A stretch of 32,000 nucleotides of DNA, from contig JANQNC010000001.1 of the NCBI GenBank assembly GCA_028279745.1, positions 300,001-332,000 on the forward strand. Reading direction: 5' to 3'. A program made the translations under genes and the position numbers. Numbering within the stretch: the first letter of the stretch is position 1; every line of letters begins with the position of its first letter. The notes beneath the pieces are model-generated. The model worked only from the letters and a program-made list of their open reading frames with translations, was not told the origin of the DNA and searched no databases. Positions 4,688 to 18,337 of this stretch are shown in pieces. The DNA comes from Candidatus Nanoarchaeia archaeon (GTDB lineage Archaea; Nanobdellota; Nanobdellia; Woesearchaeales; JANQNC01).

Positions 4688-5415
4688 CTTCACAAAAAAC
4701 ATTAAAAGATGTAAAGATGCATTACTGCCCTGGTTGCGGCCATAGAATGATCAATAAACTAATTGCCCACGTGATAGATGAGATGGGTCTGAGAGAAAAA
4801 ACTATAATGAGTTCTCCAGTGGGTTGCTCGGTTCTGGTTTATGACTATCTTGATCTTGATGTTATCGAATGTGCGCACGGCAGAGTTCCAAGCGTGTTAA
4901 GTGCAATAAAAAGATGCCTTCCTGACAGATTTGTGCTAGGATATCAGGGGGATGGTGATCTTGCAGCGATTGGAACAAATGAAACAATCCATACTGCTAA
5001 CCGCGGAGAAAATATAACAATCATTTTCATAAATAATGCAGTTTATGGGATGACTGGGGGGCAGATGGCACCAACCAGCTTGCCCGGACAGGTATCAACA
5101 ACAACCCCAAAAGGCAGAGGGGCTAACTTTGAAGGCAACCCAATAAAAATGTGTGAGCTGTTAGCAACTCTTGATGGCCCAACCTATATCGAACGTTTAG
5201 CCATGAATAGTGCAGGCAGTTTAAAAAATATAAAAGAAGCCCTAAAAAAAGCATTTCAATGTCAACAGGATGGAAAGGGATATTCATTCATTGAGATATT
5301 ATCACCTTGTCCTACAGGTTGGAAGAATGACATAAAAGAGTCCTTGAACTTTGTTGATAAAATGCAGGAATTTCTCCCTGTTGGAGTTTTCAAAGACGAA
5401 CGGAAGAACAGATAA
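4684..5415 (+). CDS. 2-oxoacid:ferredoxin oxidoreductase beta (TPP) subunit
   Basis: 243-aa ORF with YCPGCGH and GDGD (YQGDGDLAAIG) motifs. Translationally coupled on both sides. Confidence 0.9.
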   Translation: MTSQKTLKDVKMHYCPGCGHRMINKLIAHVIDEMGLREKTIMSSPVGCSVLVYDYLDLDVIECAHGRVPSVLSAIKRCLPDRFVLGYQGDGDLAAIGTNETIHTANRGENITIIFINNAVYGMTGGQMAPTSLPGQVSTTTPKGRGANFEGNPIKMCELLATLDGPTYIERLAMNSAGSLKNIKEALKKAFQCQQDGKGYSFIEILSPCPTGWKNDIKESLNFVDKMQEFLPVGVFKDERKNR

Positions 5416-5945
5416 TGAAAGAAAAAATAATAATTGCAGGACACGGAGGGCAAGGCATAATATTGGCAGGGAGCCTGCTGGCAAATACTGCTATGAACCA
5501 GAATTTGCAGATCTGCGGCACAATTTCATATGGTGTTCAGATGCGTGGAGGAACAACAAACTCTTCGATGATCCTATCTGACAAAAAAATTGAAAGCCCA
5601 ATCATAACTAAACCAACTGTGTTACTGATACTTAACCAACCCGCACTAGATAAGTATGAGAACCTAGTTGAAAAAAATGGACTGGTAATCCTAAACACTT
5701 CTGATTGCAAAACCAAAGTGTCTAGAGATGATGTATGTGTTGTTGAAGTTGATGCAACCAAGATAGCAGAAAAACTCGGAAATAAAAAAGCAACCAACAT
5801 GGTCATGGTTGGAGCGTACCTAAAAAAAAATAGGACATTAGACATTAAACTTGCTAAAAGCATGGTTAAGAAAGTGTTACCAAAAGCAAGCGAAGAGCTG
5901 ATTGAGCTTAATAAAAAAGCCCTATTGCTAGGGTATACCCAATAG
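5415..5945 (+). CDS. 2-oxoacid:ferredoxin oxidoreductase gamma subunit
   Basis: 176-aa ORF with the gamma-subunit motif IIAGHGGQGIILAG. Its ATG overlaps the beta stop by 1 nt (TAATG). Confidence 0.85.
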   Translation: MKEKIIIAGHGGQGIILAGSLLANTAMNQNLQICGTISYGVQMRGGTTNSSMILSDKKIESPIITKPTVLLILNQPALDKYENLVEKNGLVILNTSDCKTKVSRDDVCVVEVDATKIAEKLGNKKATNMVMVGAYLKKNRTLDIKLAKSMVKKVLPKASEELIELNKKALLLGYTQ

Positions 5946-6042
5946 CTAATTTTAGTGGTTTATCATTACCTTTATAAATAACCTATAAGTTCTTCTCATT
6001 AGAGGGATTTTCGGGAGATAGTCTCAGAAGATCTAAATTAAA

Positions 6043-6963
6043 ATGAAATGTACTAAATGTGAAAGGGAAGCAGTATACTGGACTACAAACCATAAACTAT
6101 GCAAAGAACACTTCTTTGATTATTTTGAATCAAAAGTTTTTAGGACGATAAATAAGTATAGACTGTTTAATAGGGAAGATAAAGTCTGCGTAGCTACATC
6201 TGGTGGAAAAGACTCAATGTCTTTACTCTATGTAGTCAACAAGTATTGTAAGAAACGAGGCATTAAATTCTTTTCTTTAGCGATAGATGAAGGGATTAAT
6301 GGATACAGGAATGAGGCATTAGACAATCTGAAAGACTTTTGTAAAGAATATGATATTAAACTAGAAATATTTTCTTTCAAGGACAGATATGGCAAAACAA
6401 TGGACCAGCTTAGAGAAAAAGCCATAAATGAATTTGGAAAAACCCCCTGCACCATATGCGGAACATTCAGACGATCACTGTTAAACAAGAAAGCTCGTGA
6501 GTTGGGAGCTACAAAACTAGCAACAGGACACAACATGGATGATGAGGCACAGAATTTCCTGATGAACCTGTTTAAGGGGAACATGGGAAATAATGCTTCA
6601 TTAGGACCAATAGTTGGAGTATCTGCTAATGAAAAGTTTGTCCCAAGAGTAAAACCTTTGTATCACATACTAGACATAGAGGCAAAACTCTACGCAAAAT
6701 ACAAAGAATTCAACCTATGTTTTTGTGATTGCCCACATTCAGACATGTCATTCAGAAAAAAGATTAAATTGAAGTTACATGAGATAGAAAAAGAAGTCCC
6801 AGGAATAAAAAATGGAGTTGTGAATTCTTTTATGGAAATCATGCCTACTTTGAAAGAGAGGTACAAGAACAAAAAAGAGTTCAAATACTGTTCTAAATGT
6901 GGAGATGCATGTGTAGGTGAGAAGTGCAATGCTTGTCTGTTGGAAGAGCAGTTATGCAAATGA
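6043..6963 (+). CDS. tRNA 2-thiolation PP-loop ATPase, TtuA / NcsA (Ncs6/Ctu1) family
   Basis: 306 aa. PP-loop ATSGGKDS; N-terminal CTKC...CKEH and C-terminal CSKC...CNAC zinc-finger-like motifs; central CTIC and CDCPH cysteines where this family binds its Fe-S cluster. I cannot tell s2U34 from s2T54 specificity by eye. Confidence 0.85.
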   Translation: MKCTKCEREAVYWTTNHKLCKEHFFDYFESKVFRTINKYRLFNREDKVCVATSGGKDSMSLLYVVNKYCKKRGIKFFSLAIDEGINGYRNEALDNLKDFCKEYDIKLEIFSFKDRYGKTMDQLREKAINEFGKTPCTICGTFRRSLLNKKARELGATKLATGHNMDDEAQNFLMNLFKGNMGNNASLGPIVGVSANEKFVPRVKPLYHILDIEAKLYAKYKEFNLCFCDCPHSDMSFRKKIKLKLHEIEKEVPGIKNGVVNSFMEIMPTLKERYKNKKEFKYCSKCGDACVGEKCNACLLEEQLCK

Positions 6964-12858: not shown

Positions 12859-13407
12859 ATGTTTATAAGGAAGTTCGTTCCTCCAAAAGAGCGGATGTTA
12901 AAAGAGAAATTGGGGGTGGACGAGAGAGATGCAGTTATACTCTCCATGTTTGCTAAAAATCCAGAAGTTAGTCAAACAGATTTAGCTGAAGCTTTGAAAC
13001 TGAGCCAGCCTTCTATCAATGCGCGAGTACAGAAACTAAAGAAAAAAGGACTATTATCATTAACAGCAGGGATAGAGTTCAACAAAACAGATATGTACAT
13101 GGCAAGAGTTGACTTTACCGCACCAAATTCTGAAGAAATATTGAGTCAGTTGCAGAACTGTTCTTTCTTCGTAAATGGATTCATAATGTCCGGAAGCAAT
13201 AATGTATCAGTCTTTATTGTAGGACATGATCTGCAGAGGATCGAGAACATAATCAGCATGCACCTAAGATCCAACCCAGACATAAAAGACATAAACATGA
13301 GTGTTGTCGTAAGTTCAGCAAAACCATTCATATATTCAGTAGACATAGAAAAAGAAGAAAATTCTGATTGTGAGAACTGCGACAAGTGCAAAAACAAAAA
13401 GGAATAA
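12859..13407 (+). CDS. Lrp/AsnC-like winged-helix transcriptional regulator with a Cys-rich C-terminal tail
   Basis: 182 aa. HTH segment VSQTDLAEALKLSQPSINARVQKLKKKGLL, then a RAM-like alpha/beta region, then the tail CENCDKC. ATG 12895 is an alternative start (see the finding on the 17-mer repeat). Confidence 0.7.
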   Translation: MFIRKFVPPKERMLKEKLGVDERDAVILSMFAKNPEVSQTDLAEALKLSQPSINARVQKLKKKGLLSLTAGIEFNKTDMYMARVDFTAPNSEEILSQLQNCSFFVNGFIMSGSNNVSVFIVGHDLQRIENIISMHLRSNPDIKDINMSVVVSSAKPFIYSVDIEKEENSDCENCDKCKNKKE

Positions 13408-13981: not shown

Positions 13982-15352
13982 ATGAATGTACATTCACTTG
14001 AAAAAATATACTTAAAAAGCCCTTTAGCTCTGCAAAACATATTAGTAAGCACTTACGGATTAAGAGAGCAAAGGATAAGATACGGAGGCATCTATAAAAC
14101 ACATCATAACTGGTTGCTTAAAACACAATGGTTACCTAAAGACGAACTAAACAAGATAGAAAGTAACTTATTAAGCCAAACCCTCCAGAATGCATTAGTA
14201 AACGTGCCATTCTATAAAGACTTGACTATAAAGAAAGAAGCTAGTTTAGAAGACTTCCCCACAATTCTAAAAAAAAGGTTTTTTGATGAACCAAACGCAT
14301 TCTTGTCAAAAAAATTTGCAAACAAAAAATTACTAACTCTCCACACTAGCGGCAGCACAGGGACTCCGTTGGCAATAAAAATGAATAAAGATACTAGGCG
14401 AAAATCTTACGCATTTATGTCTCGATTTTACAACACGATTGGTTTCAAGGCAGGTGAGAAAAAAGCAACATTTGTAGGAAGACGAGTTCAACTTCCAGAC
14501 AATAACAAACCTCCCTTCTGGAGATATAATCTTTTTGATAACCAGCTACTTTTCTCTTCATACCATACAAGCAAAAAAAATCTTTGCCACTACTTAAAAA
14601 AACTGGACAGATTTAAACCAAAACTGATAGAAGGATACTCTTCAAGCATTTTAAGAATTGCCCGACACATCCTGGAACACTCAGTAAACCTAAACCACGT
14701 ACCAAACTCAATTGCTGTTAGCTCTGAAACTCTTACAAAAAAACAGAGAGATGAGATAGAAAGTGCTTTTGGATGTAAAGTGTACAACCAATATGGATCT
14801 TCAGAAACTGCTTTATTTGCAAGCGACTGCGAACACCAAAAAATGCACATAAGTCAAGAACACGGAATAATAGAAGTTCTACAAAAAAATAAGCTTAACC
14901 GAAAAGGGGAAGGGGAGCTTATAGTCACAGGATTTATTAACCCTGTAACACCTTTTATACGGTATGCGATTGGAGACAGGGGCTCAATCTCTTACAAAAA
15001 ATGCAAGTGTGGAAGGCAATCACCCATTATTGAAAAGGTTGAAGGTAAGATAAATGACATAATAGTGACCCCTGACGGAAATCATGTTCCTTCTGCAGGA
15101 CTTATCTTGGCGTTTGAGTACTTGAACTCGATCAAAGAATCTCAGGTTGTGCAAGATAAAAAGGATGAAGTTTGTGTGAACATAGTTCCAAAACTCAACT
15201 ATAACAAAAAAGAAGAAAAATTCATGCTATGGGAGCTAAGAAAAAGATTGGGAAGCAAAATGAAGATACACATCCAAAAAGTAAAAGAGATAAAAGTGAG
15301 CTCAAATGGAAAATACAAATTTATAGTTCAAAATTACCTTAAGAAAAAATAA
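13982..15352 (+). CDS. Adenylate-forming ligase of the phenylacetate-CoA ligase (PaaK / CapK / F390-synthetase-like) family
   Basis: 456 aa with AMP-binding motifs TSGSTGTPL and YGSSET and a PaaK-like overall length. Substrate unknown. Confidence 0.8.
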   Translation: MNVHSLEKIYLKSPLALQNILVSTYGLREQRIRYGGIYKTHHNWLLKTQWLPKDELNKIESNLLSQTLQNALVNVPFYKDLTIKKEASLEDFPTILKKRFFDEPNAFLSKKFANKKLLTLHTSGSTGTPLAIKMNKDTRRKSYAFMSRFYNTIGFKAGEKKATFVGRRVQLPDNNKPPFWRYNLFDNQLLFSSYHTSKKNLCHYLKKLDRFKPKLIEGYSSSILRIARHILEHSVNLNHVPNSIAVSSETLTKKQRDEIESAFGCKVYNQYGSSETALFASDCEHQKMHISQEHGIIEVLQKNKLNRKGEGELIVTGFINPVTPFIRYAIGDRGSISYKKCKCGRQSPIIEKVEGKINDIIVTPDGNHVPSAGLILAFEYLNSIKESQVVQDKKDEVCVNIVPKLNYNKKEEKFMLWELRKRLGSKMKIHIQKVKEIKVSSNGKYKFIVQNYLKKK

Positions 15353-16075
15353 TCAGTTCTGAATATCAAAAGAAGTTAGTTCGCCGTCTTTTTCATTCAT
15401 GATAGAAGTTCTGACACTGATCTTGCTTTTAAGCTTGTTTTCAATCAGCCATCTGTCAGAAGGAATCACTTTCTGTTTTTCTAATTCTTTCAAGGTATAC
15501 CACTTAAGCTTGCCATACTCAGAATTCCTAAACTTATCATGAGTTGTTGTGACTTTTGTGAAAAACAAGATAAAATTGTGTTTGACCATATCATCCCCTT
15601 CAACCCTCTCCTGCAGTACTGCGTTCATAGATGAGAATTTTGTGTCTAAGTTTGTCTTTTGTTTAACTTGTCTAAGACTTGCCTGCTCAAAATCTTCTTC
15701 CAAAAGCATCTTCCCTCCGATCAAAGACAGGTAATCTTTGTAAGGACGTCTGTTTCTTTTTATCATTAAGATCTTTTCTTGGTTTTTCTCTTTTCTCATC
15801 GCAGCAACCAGAATAATAGGTAAAGGAGAAAGTTCTTGACCCACTAAATTTGAGAAAAAAGGCAAGTACTTCTCAGAATCTTTAGTAAGATAGTAATAAT
15901 CTCCTTTCTTTTCAACTATCCCTTCTTTTTGCATACGTTCAAGATGGTAGCTTACCATGTTAGATCTAATCTTGATCTTCTTTTCTATCTCACTGAACTT
16001 CAGCTTTATACTGTCTAGGAAAAGTTGGAATATTTTCTCTCTTTCTTCCTTAACTAAGCTTCCTGAATACTTCAT
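15353..16075 (-). CDS. Winged-helix DNA-binding domain fused to a C-terminal, catalytically degenerate Nudix domain (putative ligand-sensing regulator)
   Basis: N-terminal wHTH (FSEIEKKIKIRSNMVSYHLERMQKEGIVEKK). The C-terminal Nudix-box remnant is G-KMLLE-E-DFEQASL-RQVKQKTNL, so G-x5-E-x7-R is kept but the REUxEE glutamates are Q, Q and K. I start at ATG 16075; the ORF-track start at 16084 is a TTG. Confidence 0.7.
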   Translation of the reverse strand: MKYSGSLVKEEREKIFQLFLDSIKLKFSEIEKKIKIRSNMVSYHLERMQKEGIVEKKGDYYYLTKDSEKYLPFFSNLVGQELSPLPIILVAAMRKEKNQEKILMIKRNRRPYKDYLSLIGGKMLLEEDFEQASLRQVKQKTNLDTKFSSMNAVLQERVEGDDMVKHNFILFFTKVTTTHDKFRNSEYGKLKWYTLKELEKQKVIPSDRWLIENKLKSKISVRTSIMNEKDGELTSFDIQN

Positions 16076-16108
16076 TTTAGTCAAATGAATTCGAGGAATT
16101 ATTTAAAT

Positions 16109-16138
16109 ATTAGCAAAAGGTTACGTCCTTTTGCTAAT
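16109..16138. promoter_or_regulatory. Perfect 12-6-12 palindrome, candidate operator
   Basis: ATTAGCAAAAGG-ttacgt-CCTTTTGCTAAT in the 129-nt divergent intergenic region. It abuts the ATTTAAATA TATA-like box (16101-16110) of the regulator gene. Confidence 0.6.
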
Positions 16139-16163
16139 TAGAAAAGGACGCTGCCCTTTTCTA
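16139..16163. promoter_or_regulatory. Second palindrome (9-7-9) sharing the AAAAGG/CCTTTT core, candidate operator
   Basis: TAGAAAAGG-acgctgc-CCTTTTCTA, directly adjacent to the first palindrome. It overlaps the TTCTATATTTA TATA-like element upstream of the Nudix hydrolase gene. Confidence 0.5.
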
Positions 16164-16204
16164 TATTTACAAGCATTTATAACTGACTATCGACGAGGTG
16201 GAAA

Positions 16205-16672
16205 ATGGCAGAAATCAAAGAAAAAGCACATTATGTGGCTGTAACAGGAATAATAAGAAAAGACGGGAAATACCTTATATGTAAAAGAAGCCCGAAAGAA
16301 AAGGCATTCCCAAATATGTGGTGTGTGCCTGGCGGAAAAGTTGAGATGCAAGACTTTATCAACACACCAAAAGACACACAAGACCATTGGTTAGATATTC
16401 TAGAAAAAGTATTGAAAAAAGAGATATTTGAAGAGACTGGGTTGAGTGTGAAGAATATTGGATATGTATCCAGTTTAGTGTTCATAAGACCAAATGGATT
16501 TCCCACCATAATCATCAGTTTATGTGCAGACCATCTTGCAGGAGATATCAAGTTAGCTAAAGATGAACTAGTGGAACATGCGTGGGTGACAGTAGAAGAA
16601 GCAAAAAAGTATGAACTGATAGAAAATATATACGAACAGATAAAGAAGGTAGATGAGACACAACCTTTTTAA
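16205..16672 (+). CDS. Nudix hydrolase (catalytic residues intact, atypically long Nudix-box loop)
   Basis: 155 aa. GGKVEMQD...KKEIFEETGL keeps the (R/K)E-U-x-EE-x-G-U helix. GAGGTGG SD at 16195-16201. Confidence 0.85.
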   Translation: MAEIKEKAHYVAVTGIIRKDGKYLICKRSPKEKAFPNMWCVPGGKVEMQDFINTPKDTQDHWLDILEKVLKKEIFEETGLSVKNIGYVSSLVFIRPNGFPTIIISLCADHLAGDIKLAKDELVEHAWVTVEEAKKYELIENIYEQIKKVDETQPF

Positions 16673-16689: not shown

Positions 16690-17688
16690 GTGGATATGGA
16701 CTTAATAGTTACTCTAGTTGTACTGGCAGTATTGCCACATCTTATCTGTAAATTAACGAGCAAAGTAAATATTCCGCACGTTATAGGATTAATAATAAGC
16801 GGGTTGATCATAGGGATTCCTCCTGTAAGAGAATACCTAATCGAACCACATTCAGATCTGGTGTTCAAACTAGGGGACATAGCGCTATTCTGTCTTATGT
16901 TTTTAGCAGGGATGAAAAGTTCATTAAAAGAGATCTATTATGAGACAAAAGACGAAACTATAATAGCATTATTTGCAGCAGTGATACCTTTCTTACTGGG
17001 ATTTTTAGTGTTTAAATTGCTTGGGTTTTCTTTACTGATATCAATCATAGTTGGCGTGTGTATGACAATAACCTCAGAAGCGACAAAAGCAGAAGAACTG
17101 CTTGACTTAAGAAAAATAAAAAGCAAAGTAGGGAGTGCGATGCTGGCTTCAGGAATACTAGACGATCTAATAGGCTTAATCATCTTCATACTGGCAACAA
17201 GCGCGTTAGCAATAGTGCCTATAAACGATTATCTATTACTACTGGGAGTGTTGGTGTCTTTCTTTGTTGGGGTAATGGTCCAAAGAAAAGCCAAAAAAAT
17301 AGAAAAAATAGCAGATGTAAACAATTTATTCAAACTAATAATCCCTTTCTTCTTCATCTCCATGGGAATGTACTTCAACTTTGAATCATTAATAGTAAAC
17401 CCAACACTGTTACTTCTTATAATTGTAGTTGCTGTTGTGGGAAAGTTTGTGTCAGTGTTTTTAGCAAAACCATTTACAACATTCAGCTGGGCACAAACTA
17501 AACTTATAGGTTGGGCAATGAACTCAAGAGGTGCAATGGAGCTGGCAATTGCAGTTATTGCACTAAGAAATGGATTAATCCCAACAGACTTATATTCGAG
17601 CATCATAATAATGACACTAATCACAACCATACTGTTCCCATTTGTTTTAGTGAATGCAATCAAGAAAAACAGAAAAATAATGAATTAA
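16690..17688 (+). CDS. Cation:proton antiporter (CPA2 / Kef / NapA-like) membrane domain protein
   Basis: 332 aa, hydrophobic throughout, with Na+/H+-exchanger-like segments and no C-terminal regulatory domain. The ORF-track start is GTG 16690; ATG 16696 is equally possible. Confidence 0.75.
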   Translation: MDMDLIVTLVVLAVLPHLICKLTSKVNIPHVIGLIISGLIIGIPPVREYLIEPHSDLVFKLGDIALFCLMFLAGMKSSLKEIYYETKDETIIALFAAVIPFLLGFLVFKLLGFSLLISIIVGVCMTITSEATKAEELLDLRKIKSKVGSAMLASGILDDLIGLIIFILATSALAIVPINDYLLLLGVLVSFFVGVMVQRKAKKIEKIADVNNLFKLIIPFFFISMGMYFNFESLIVNPTLLLLIIVVAVVGKFVSVFLAKPFTTFSWAQTKLIGWAMNSRGAMELAIAVIALRNGLIPTDLYSSIIIMTLITTILFPFVLVNAIKKNRKIMN

Positions 17689-17689
17689 A

Positions 17690-18337
17690 ATGAAGATTGA
17701 CAATATTTATCGAATCCTAAAAAAGGAAGTAAAAAGCTACAAAGTTCCTATTGTAGATCTAGTACAGATACAGACAAAAAATCCATTTAAAGTTTTATTA
17801 GCAACAATACTTTCTGCCAGGACAAAAGATGAAACAACAACACAGGCAGCAAAAAGATTGTTTAGCAAAGTTAAATCAATGAAATCACTTAGTAATCTTA
17901 CAGTCAAACAGATAGAGAAACTGATATTCCCTGTTGGTTTCTATAAGAATAAAGCAAAGTTTTTGAAACAACTCCCTGTTGTGATAAAAGAGGAATTTGG
18001 CGGAAAAATTCCATCAACCGTTGATGAACTAGTGAAGTTGCCAGGTGTTGGCAGAAAAACAGCAAACTTAGTTGTTGCAGTTGCATTTAACAAGCATGCA
18101 ATATGTGTAGATGTTCATGTACATAGGATAATGAATAGGTTTGGTTATCTGAAGACTAAAACACCTTTCGAGACTGAGATGAAATTAAGGGAAAAACTGC
18201 CAAAGAAATACTGGAAGACAATAAACTCAATACTTGTTGCATTTGGTCAAAACTTATGCACTCCTGTAAGCCCTTACTGCAGCAAATGCCCCGTAAGAAA
18301 ATATTGTGATAGAGTTAATGTGAAAAAGTCAAGATAG
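17690..18337 (+). CDS. nth: Endonuclease III (DNA glycosylase/AP lyase)
   Basis: 215 aa. HhH-GPD motif LVKLPGVGRKTANLV, catalytic Asp context (CVDVHVHRI), and a C-terminal C-x6-C-x2-C-x5-C [4Fe-4S] motif (CTPVSPYCSKCPVRKYC). Confidence 0.92.
   Translation: MKIDNIYRILKKEVKSYKVPIVDLVQIQTKNPFKVLLATILSARTKDETTTQAAKRLFSKVKSMKSLSNLTVKQIEKLIFPVGFYKNKAKFLKQLPVVIKEEFGGKIPSTVDELVKLPGVGRKTANLVVAVAFNKHAICVDVHVHRIMNRFGYLKTKTPFETEMKLREKLPKKYWKTINSILVAFGQNLCTPVSPYCSKCPVRKYCDRVNVKKSR

Follow-up and report, generated by a model that had tools for sequence, protein, structure and literature searches.

In bacterial NrtR regulators, a Nudix domain with a perturbed catalytic signature serves as an effector sensor and is joined to a winged helix, the Nudix domain being N-terminal and the NrtR-type winged helix-turn-helix (wHTH) C-terminal (Rodionov et al., 2008, PMC2330246; Shewanella structures 3gz5 and 3gz8). 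In a review of the Nudix clan, NrtR is the only route listed to transcriptional regulation (PMC5389931), and the Nudix proteins covered by a study on Sulfolobus are reported to lack a helix-turn-helix (PMC10311068). Our search of the literature for an archaeal wHTH-Nudix regulator found no description of the family reported here. Its representative, which we call REG, is encoded at 15353..16075 on the minus strand of a 32,000-nucleotide stretch of DNA, hereafter the window, from a Candidatus Nanoarchaeia archaeon (contig JANQNC010000001.1, positions 300,001 to 332,000). In REG, a wHTH precedes a degenerate Nudix domain; the gene stands head-to-head with that of a predicted Nudix hydrolase, NUDIX2, and a palindrome lies just before its start codon. 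We document this architecture and the conservation of the dead Nudix box, of the gene pairing and of the palindrome with its position. We propose, with moderate confidence, that REG is a ligand-responsive dimeric autorepressor with the divergent hydrolase gene as a further target. REG would come off DNA when its dead Nudix pocket is occupied by a nucleotide derivative, an inducer that the hydrolase would then remove.

Domain architecture of REG

From its ATG, the open reading frame (ORF) of REG encodes 240 aa, the coordinates given above including the stop codon. REG orthologues begin at MKYSG, which favours this ATG over a TTG located three codons upstream that would make a protein of 243 aa. 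We found 194 homologues, with a length of about 235 aa. Pfam assigns residues 93-207 of REG to NUDIX (PF00293; 38.1 bits, E 1.8e-9, for a gathering score of 21.1), and the matches of its N-terminus to wHTH families are below threshold, with an E-value of 4.5e-4 for DUF7347 and 20.2 bits, for a cut-off of 22, for the ArsR-type family HTH_5 (PF01022). Among 44 orthologues, 27 match HTH_5 at E<=1e-3 (best 5e-8) and 23 match DUF7347.

An AlphaFold2 model built on these 44 orthologues (mean predicted local distance difference test score of 85) shows a helix-strand-helix-helix-wing-helix unit (residues 10-76), which a linker of low confidence (76-82) joins to a Nudix fold (85-214), and a beta-hairpin at the C-terminus (223-239). 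Combined with the orthologue matches and the invariant columns, it delimits an ArsR-like wHTH (residues 1-76; 15848..16075, minus strand), a Nudix-fold domain that we propose to be the ligand sensor (residues 85-214; 15434..15823, minus strand) and a C-terminal extension (residues 215-240; 15356..15433, minus strand), whose tail, together with the IPSDxW motif, is also found in stand-alone active relatives (P0170 and others). When the model is compared to the PDB with Foldseek, more than 500 Nudix structures are matched, the top one being the Nudix domain of Shewanella NrtR in complex with ADP-ribose (3gz8, E 2e-10), with many other Nudix enzymes scoring nearly as high. An initial, sequence-only reading of this DNA had taken residues ~1-80 for a winged helix and the remainder for a Nudix fold, in that order; Pfam and structure prediction both agree with this description.

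The predicted recognition helix of the wHTH spans residues 38-50. It contains S38, N39, Y43 and H44, which are invariant in orthologues and are the best-conserved residues of the wHTH. H44 is also the only histidine of residues 1-80, which contain no cysteine and, as read from the translation, no metal-site residues.

A conserved, degenerate Nudix box

The Nudix box of REG (15647..15715, minus strand) reads G121-x5-E127-x7-R135-Q-V-K-Q-K-T-N-L143 or, spelled out, G121 KMLLE E127 DFEQASL R135 Q136 V K Q139 K140 T N L143. An intact box follows the pattern GX5EX7REUXEEXGU, with three glutamates in REUXEE; the corresponding stretch of REG is R-Q-V-K-Q-K-T-N-L, in which Q136, Q139 and K140 replace the canonical glutamates. 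The translation is thus exactly as first described, with the scaffold kept and the glutamates changed to Q, Q and K.

The conservation of the box was read from the 44 database orthologues (53-72% identity) and from 80 genome loci (designated below by L numbers). Position 136 is never acidic (Q/L/I/V/K/H) and position 140 is a lysine in at least 90% of sequences, across proteins down to 34% identity. The degenerate box is therefore a property of the orthologues and not a misalignment as far as positions 136 and 140 are concerned, whereas Q139 is a peculiarity of the window protein, most orthologues having a glutamate there. E127, R135 and the downstream E156 are invariant, as are RPY..YW before the box and IPSDxWL after the Nudix fold; HERV is another conserved pocket motif. 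As the substitution pattern is constant down to 34% identity, these alignments indicate that the Nudix domain of REG is under selection for a non-catalytic role, rather than decaying.

Alternatively, REG could still be an enzyme, i.e. a bifunctional hydrolase and regulator that would use the remaining or alternative acidic residues, its wHTH serving for feedback control. Bifunctional enzyme-regulators do exist, as exemplified by NadR, BirA and the NrtR member NuhA. The invariance of E127, R135 and E156 and the retention of E139 in most orthologues would fit such an activity, as would a sister clade with the same wHTH fusion and a fully intact box (see below), whose members are, judging from their box, probably bifunctional. 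However, the first glutamate of the box is never acidic in REG orthologues, the third one is a conserved lysine, and the dead-box clade is precisely the one that has a separate, predicted active hydrolase as a neighbour. By analogy, a loss of activity would also be expected from NrtR proteins with a perturbed signature, in which activity is undetectable or about 1e-4 per second and in which restoring the signature increases the rate 600-fold (PMC2330246). All in all, we regard the persistence of catalysis in REG as rather improbable, and a non-hydrolysing sensor as the preferred reading of the domain.

Named relatives of REG all belong to DPANN archaea (Woesearchaeota, Nanoarchaeota or Nanoarchaeia, Pacearchaeota, Diapherotrites and Parvarchaeota), and the archaeal host supposed at the outset is thus borne out; some records from metagenome-assembled genomes bear the label 'uncultured Methanosarcinales'. 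An exhaustive profile search of 1.84 billion cluster representatives retrieves at least 74 clusters (50% identity) at E<=1e-30 and 574 at E<=1e-10.

A divergent NudI-like hydrolase

NUDIX2 (16205..16672, plus strand) is a protein of 155 aa that matches Pfam NUDIX with 48.5 bits. An orthologue of NUDIX2 (45-76% identity) is found head-to-head with a REG orthologue in 57 of the 80 loci, down to 34% REG identity. The catalytic E..EE glutamates of its box, E73, E76 and E77, are invariant across orthologues, and the box holds a conserved insertion of 14 residues (KDT..HW). The link between REG and the facing Nudix hydrolase, supposed early on, is thus borne out by the maintenance of the pair, and the invariant glutamates agree with an active enzyme, the activity itself being predicted. 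The closest solved relatives of NUDIX2 by profile are the NudI nucleoside triphosphatases 6dt3 and 3oga, and by fold NudC and NudI tie in Foldseek. NUDIX2 scores 36.2 bits, for a cut-off of 95, against the NudI equivalog NCBIfam NF012016, and in its N-terminal part only, so that we label it a NudI-like, predicted hydrolase. We also considered that NUDIX2 could be a recent duplicate of the sensor domain of REG; this was rejected, as no sequence similarity is detectable between the two.

A palindrome that accompanies the REG gene

A 22-bp palindrome, TTCCTCGAATTCATTTGACTAA, lies at 16077..16098 (minus strand), between the TATA box and the start codon of REG, and its conservation upstream of REG and its position weight matrix (PWM) score designate it as a candidate operator. 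The layout 5' of REG that is common to loci consists of ATATTTAAATA, which is the TATA box, followed by ATTCCTCGAATTnATTYGAGTAAA and then by the ATG. The consensus of the candidate operator is TTCCTCRAATT-wwtTYGAGTAA, i.e. a core CTCRA-N6-TYGAG that extends to 22 bp, and perfect versions of the palindrome are found in L001 (CTCGAATTAATTCGAG), L066 (CTCAAGATATCTTGAG) and L078 (CTCAAAACTTTTGAG).

At least 9 of the 10 core positions are matched in 58 of 81 REG upstream regions, versus 0.9% of random 160-nt windows, the regions without such a match being mostly explained by estimated start codons. Of the 58 sites, 57-58 have complementary bases at each of the symmetric pairs T5/A18, C6/G17 and A8/T15. 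A loose version of the pattern gives 152 matches on both strands of 598 kb, 100 of which are no more than 150 bp away from a REG start. The site of the window has a PWM score of 30.8 (maximum 33.3), and a PWM search of the whole 32 kb for further copies found none, no other position scoring above 8.

The candidate operator tracks REG and not the hydrolase. It is kept at loci where REG diverges from an unrelated two-gene operon (L004, L008, L012, L025, L039, L046) or from a DUF429 gene (L042), and it is also found upstream of operons formed by a HAD-phosphatase gene and REG in the clade with an intact box (L057, L059). In L001, L002 and L006, the palindrome is moreover present in inverted orientation before a downstream two-gene operon.

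Operator-bearing promoters also precede two kinds of small operons, encoding proteins of 267 aa and 145 aa (e.g. L046 3142-3945 and 2738-3175, minus strand) or of 153 aa and 121 aa (e.g. L001 4771-5232 and 5222-5587). These operons are candidate further members of the regulon. A Pfam search with these four operator-linked proteins and another one of 170 aa matched nothing.

The behaviour of the palindrome also bears on whether REG is a transcription factor at all. Its wHTH could have a role unrelated to DNA, another protein occupying the palindrome, and the matches of the window protein to wHTH families, being below Pfam thresholds, would be compatible with this. Yet the palindrome accompanies the REG gene through different neighbourhoods and clades, the residues of the recognition helix are the best-conserved part of the wHTH, and orthologues reach HTH_5 at E 5e-8. 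A non-DNA role thus appears to us highly improbable, and we retain REG as a predicted DNA-binding protein.

Promoter geometry

The TATA box of REG, TTATTTAAATAT (16099..16110, no strand assigned), is nearly symmetric and lies 24 nt upstream of the REG ATG. Across loci, 3-5 bp separate the TATA box from the palindrome, and about 4 bp lie between the palindrome and the REG ATG. As the usual spacing between an archaeal TATA box and the start site is about 25 nt, the 24-nt spacer implies that the REG promoter is probably leaderless and that the palindrome would not be transcribed. It would consequently be a site acting at the DNA level, at the place used by archaeal repressors: a position just after the TATA box is the classic one, as for MDR1, LrpA, Phr and TrmB.

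In most loci, the intergenic region is about 61 bp long and contains one near-symmetric TATA element between the divergent genes (e.g. L001 3930-4000). A single TATA-like element is found in 34 of 47 short intergenic regions, and the spacer from TATA to ATG has a median of 24 nt towards REG and of 30 nt towards the hydrolase. Both genes may thus depend on one TATA box, in a bidirectional promoter giving leaderless transcripts on both sides.

On the hydrolase side of the TATA box, the intergenic region of the window additionally contains two perfect inverted repeats in tandem, at 16110-16137 and 16140-16162, TTAGCAAAAGG-N6-CCTTTTGCTAA and AGAAAAGG-N7-CCTTTTCT, which are predicted to form two strong hairpins (-28.6 kcal/mol, z -4.67 for 16110-16162). 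As a conserved operator these repeats were rejected, since they are absent from 57 of 57 orthologous intergenic regions. They look like a lineage-specific insertion, for which a structure in the 5' untranslated region, an insulator or terminator and a mobile remnant are possibilities; an Rfam scan of the window found no known RNA.

A proposed ligand-controlled switch

We infer that REG binds DNA, that it represses rather than activates and that it binds a ligand of the kind discussed below. A REG dimer would bind the 22-bp palindrome through its ArsR-like winged helix, directly after its own TATA box, and would block the recruitment of RNA polymerase, resulting in autorepression. The NudI-like hydrolase gene, about 30 nt from this TATA box in the opposite direction, would in most genomes depend on this one element as well. 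As the operator would overlap the TFB-recognition element (BRE) and upstream region of the hydrolase gene, one site could control both genes. The Nudix domain of REG, deprived of two or three metal-binding glutamates, the last one being replaced by a conserved lysine, would form a pocket that binds but does not hydrolyse a nucleotide derivative, the likeliest one being the substrate of the hydrolase. Binding of this ligand would release DNA, the hydrolase would be made, the ligand would be cleared and repression would be restored.

Several observations weigh against this proposal. E127, E156 and, in most orthologues, E139 remain in the sensor domain, and these acidic residues may confer on it a residual or altered catalysis. 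The intergenic region of the window is 129 bp long, versus about 61 bp usually, with the two extra, non-conserved hairpins described above, and a second TATA-like element, TTTATAA, is present near the hydrolase gene at 16176-16182; the coupling of the hydrolase to the operator may thus be weaker in the window organism. The Nudix domain of REG is nearest to MutT/MTH1-like proteins (3fk9) by sequence and to NrtR by Foldseek rank. Finally, the operator lies upstream of the TATA box relative to the hydrolase promoter, and some archaeal factors activate from such a position.

This last point leads to another scheme, in which REG would repress itself but activate the hydrolase, by recruiting or orienting the TATA-binding protein and transcription factor B (TFB) towards the hydrolase side of a shared TATA box, the ligand switching the direction of the promoter. 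Ptr2, SurR and TrmBL1 are archaeal factors able to activate from upstream of BRE/TATA, which is where the operator stands relative to the hydrolase. The single near-symmetric TATA in 34/47 short intergenic regions, flanked at about 24 and 30 nt by the two start codons, would also suit a promoter that can be turned around. Nevertheless, the operator is only 3-5 bp from the TATA box and probably covers the BRE of the hydrolase, where REG would compete with TFB. Activation of the hydrolase by REG is thus unlikely in our opinion, and repression of both genes is the mechanism that we favour.

Nature of the proposed ligand

The stand-alone active relatives of the sensor domain have as closest relative the uncharacterised 'MutT' of Bacillus halodurans (3fk9, E 1.6e-15), and they align over their full length with MTH1. 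Attempts to assign a ligand or a substrate by NCBIfam, PDB sequence searches and Foldseek gave generic matches only, which are divided among MutT/MTH1, NudI, NudC and NrtR and fall far short of equivalog cut-offs. No NAD genes were seen among the operator-bearing genes and their neighbours, the carriers being REG, the NudI-like hydrolase, HAD phosphatase operons and small proteins without any Pfam match. Taken together, the kinship with 3fk9 and MTH1, the NudI-like partner and the lack of nearby NAD genes would tentatively favour a nucleoside tri- or diphosphate derivative over ADP-ribose, for which we find no specific support.

The fact that no ligand can be assigned would also be expected if the dead Nudix domain bound no small molecule. 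It could instead be a module for dimerisation or protein interaction, for instance with the partner hydrolase, and regulation would then report the abundance of the hydrolase or be constitutive. Many Nudix proteins dimerise, and the conserved pairing with a Nudix enzyme would fit a protein-protein link. On the other hand, the Nudix domain of REG and the hydrolase have no detectable sequence similarity, and REG proteins encoded without a hydrolase neighbour still keep both the operator and the pocket motifs RPY..YW, HERV and IPSDxW. A ligand-free module is therefore, to our mind, very unlikely, and a sensor of a nucleotide derivative remains our preferred interpretation of the domain.

Intact-box relatives and a possible origin of the sensor

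Proteins with an intact box are found around the REG family in two forms. In a tally of architecture and box among the best 150 cluster representatives at 50% identity, 46 wHTH-fused proteins have a degenerate box and 10 an intact one, and the stand-alone relatives (~158 aa) comprise 33 intact and 5 degenerate proteins, the latter being mostly fragments. The box of stand-alone relatives is REVKEETGL, and they have flanking motifs and the C-terminal hairpin in common with REG. The fused proteins with an intact box (REVKEETGL and close variants) form a sister clade (36-45% identity) that has the same wHTH and is represented by 15 loci (L045, L049-L052, L054-L057, L059-L062, L064 and L073). None of these 15 intact-box loci has a hydrolase neighbour, which is present in 57 of the 65 degenerate-box loci.

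Five of the sister-clade genes (L049, L057, L059, L060 and L073) are in an operon, directly behind the gene of a HAD-family phosphatase (e.g. L057 3268-3990 and 3992-4675). A PGI-like gene and a gene for a DUF4870 membrane protein are found near these operons, and the palindrome is upstream of the operon. The association of a HAD phosphatase with an intact-box wHTH-Nudix protein suggests a two-step Nudix/phosphatase pathway under its own control.

In a neighbour-joining tree of the Nudix domain, which carries no support values and is to that extent a further reservation, the degenerate proteins form one derived clade, and the intact fused and stand-alone proteins are basal. The simplest evolutionary reading is that a bifunctional wHTH-Nudix protein, both enzyme and regulator, lost catalysis a single time, turned into a pure sensor and was coupled to a separate, unrelated hydrolase. 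More speculatively, and only as a tentative scenario, an ancestral bifunctional wHTH-Nudix protein with an intact box, often accompanied by a HAD phosphatase, could have both hydrolysed and sensed its nucleotide substrate. One DPANN lineage would then have lost catalysis (E to x, E to K), become a pure sensor and been locked head-to-head with the unrelated NudI-like hydrolase, one job being thereby split in two. If this scenario is true, the locus is a compact, self-contained and inducible nucleotide-clearing module, with one shared TATA box whose direction is set by one operator, and it would count among the first predictions, in DPANN archaea of the Woesearchaeota type, of a ligand-responsive regulon whose operator is defined.

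The L042 contig encodes a second, 231-aa protein with a DUF7347-type wHTH (E 2e-9), whose C-terminal half has no Pfam match. Another Nudix hydrolase (69 bits) and an ORF resembling the RnlA toxin lie close to it (coordinates 5143-5577, minus strand, and 6035-6730, plus strand). The DUF7347-type protein and this hydrolase may constitute a parallel regulator-hydrolase module.

Neighbouring genes in the window

The other neighbours of REG in the window, namely the genes for an F390-synthetase-like ligase, an Na+/H+ exchanger, endonuclease III, an Lrp-like regulator and a YdjM-like protein, were compared across the 80 loci and none is conserved, save endonuclease III at one locus (L041). Downstream of NUDIX2, on the same strand and with tiny gaps, lie the genes of a short, 332-aa protein of the Na+/H+-exchanger family (16690-17688, plus strand) and of endonuclease III (17690-18337, plus strand). 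The latter is an HhH-GPD protein with an Fe-S motif; in L041 endonuclease III also adjoins REG. This proximity may be due to chance or may reflect a faint link to the handling of damaged nucleotides.

On the other side, a 456-aa adenylate-forming enzyme (13982-15352, plus strand) converges on REG, with abutting stop codons, an arrangement that is not conserved in other loci. It is related to F390 synthetase, PaaK and the DVU_1553 family (106.7 bits, below cut-off). Further away, an Lrp/AsnC-type regulator (12859-13407, plus strand) matches HTH_24 (E 1.4e-11) and, weakly, AsnC_trans_reg, and has a Cys-rich C-terminal tail, SDCENCDKCKNKK, which could be a metal- or redox-binding addition.

Comparison with known systems

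To our knowledge, next to nothing is known of how genes are regulated in DPANN archaea, which are uncultured or difficult to grow. The present locus offers a testable triplet of regulator, operator and target for a widespread Woesearchaeota family. Its intact- and dead-box clades, with and without the partner hydrolase, provide a natural series on the change from enzyme to sensor, and the apparently shared TATA box with an adjoining operator is a compact model of how archaea control bidirectional promoters. Knowing the ligand would show which nucleotide these reduced-genome organisms monitor.

NrtR is the closest in working mode. Like NrtR, REG combines a winged helix with a Nudix domain of perturbed signature, which would be used as an effector sensor; a palindromic site is located in or after the promoter, from which the proposed repressor would be released by its ligand; and both families mix members with intact and degenerate boxes. 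Unlike NrtR, REG has the reversed domain order, a wHTH that resembles ArsR and DUF7347, a Nudix domain nearest to MutT/MTH1-like proteins by sequence, and DPANN hosts, and no regulon for NAD synthesis or salvage is seen among the carriers of its operator. REG moreover scores 17.4 bits, for a cut-off of 400 and in its Nudix part only, against the NrtR equivalog NCBIfam NF050029. The term 'NrtR-like' used in the sequence-only reading thus holds for the mode of action proposed but not for family membership, and REG looks like an independent wHTH-Nudix fusion.

That the non-catalytic Nudix domain of a transcription factor can be retuned towards other ligands is illustrated by two further bacterial systems, BtAraR (Bacteroides thetaiotaomicron BT0354, an NrtR-family arabinose regulator, PDB 5bs6) and NadQ. 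These differ from REG by their bacterial hosts, their N-terminal Nudix domain and their sugar or NAD regulons; 5bs6 is among the weak sequence matches of the stand-alone relatives. The only reversed NrtR that our search of the literature brought up, as an unverified claim, is SsNrtR of Streptococcus sobrinus, an NrtR homologue that controls pnuC, nadR and pncB and responds to ADP-ribose: its authors describe an N-terminal wHTH and a C-terminal inactive Nudix domain, 'inverted' with respect to S. suis NrtR (PMC12735969, 2025). In that paper the SsNrtR model is nevertheless superimposed on Shewanella NrtR, and the stated order may be a labelling error. SsNrtR is in any case a bacterial NAD regulator unrelated to the REG family; if the stated order is correct, the reversed order of REG is not unique.

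As regards DNA binding, the ArsR/SmtB repressors (HTH_5, PF01022) are the best-matching type of domain for REG. Proteins of this type repress transcription as dimers bound to palindromes that overlap their own promoters. In contrast to the metalloregulators among them, REG lacks Cys/His metal-sensing sites in residues 1-80 and has a Nudix fold as its effector domain. As regards the enzymatic side, the NudI (YfaO) nucleoside triphosphatase and the MutT-type sanitising Nudix enzymes are profile kin of NUDIX2 (6dt3, 3oga) and of the stand-alone relatives of the sensor domain (3fk9), but scores are far below the NCBIfam equivalog cut-offs and NUDIX2 has the KDT..HW insertion in its box.

The principle of a Nudix sensor in a transcription factor is thus already known from the bacterial NrtR, AraR and NadQ. 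What is new here is a predicted, independent archaeal version of it, with another DNA-binding domain and the opposite domain order, which comes with a defined candidate operator, a target and a natural enzyme-to-sensor series in DPANN archaea.

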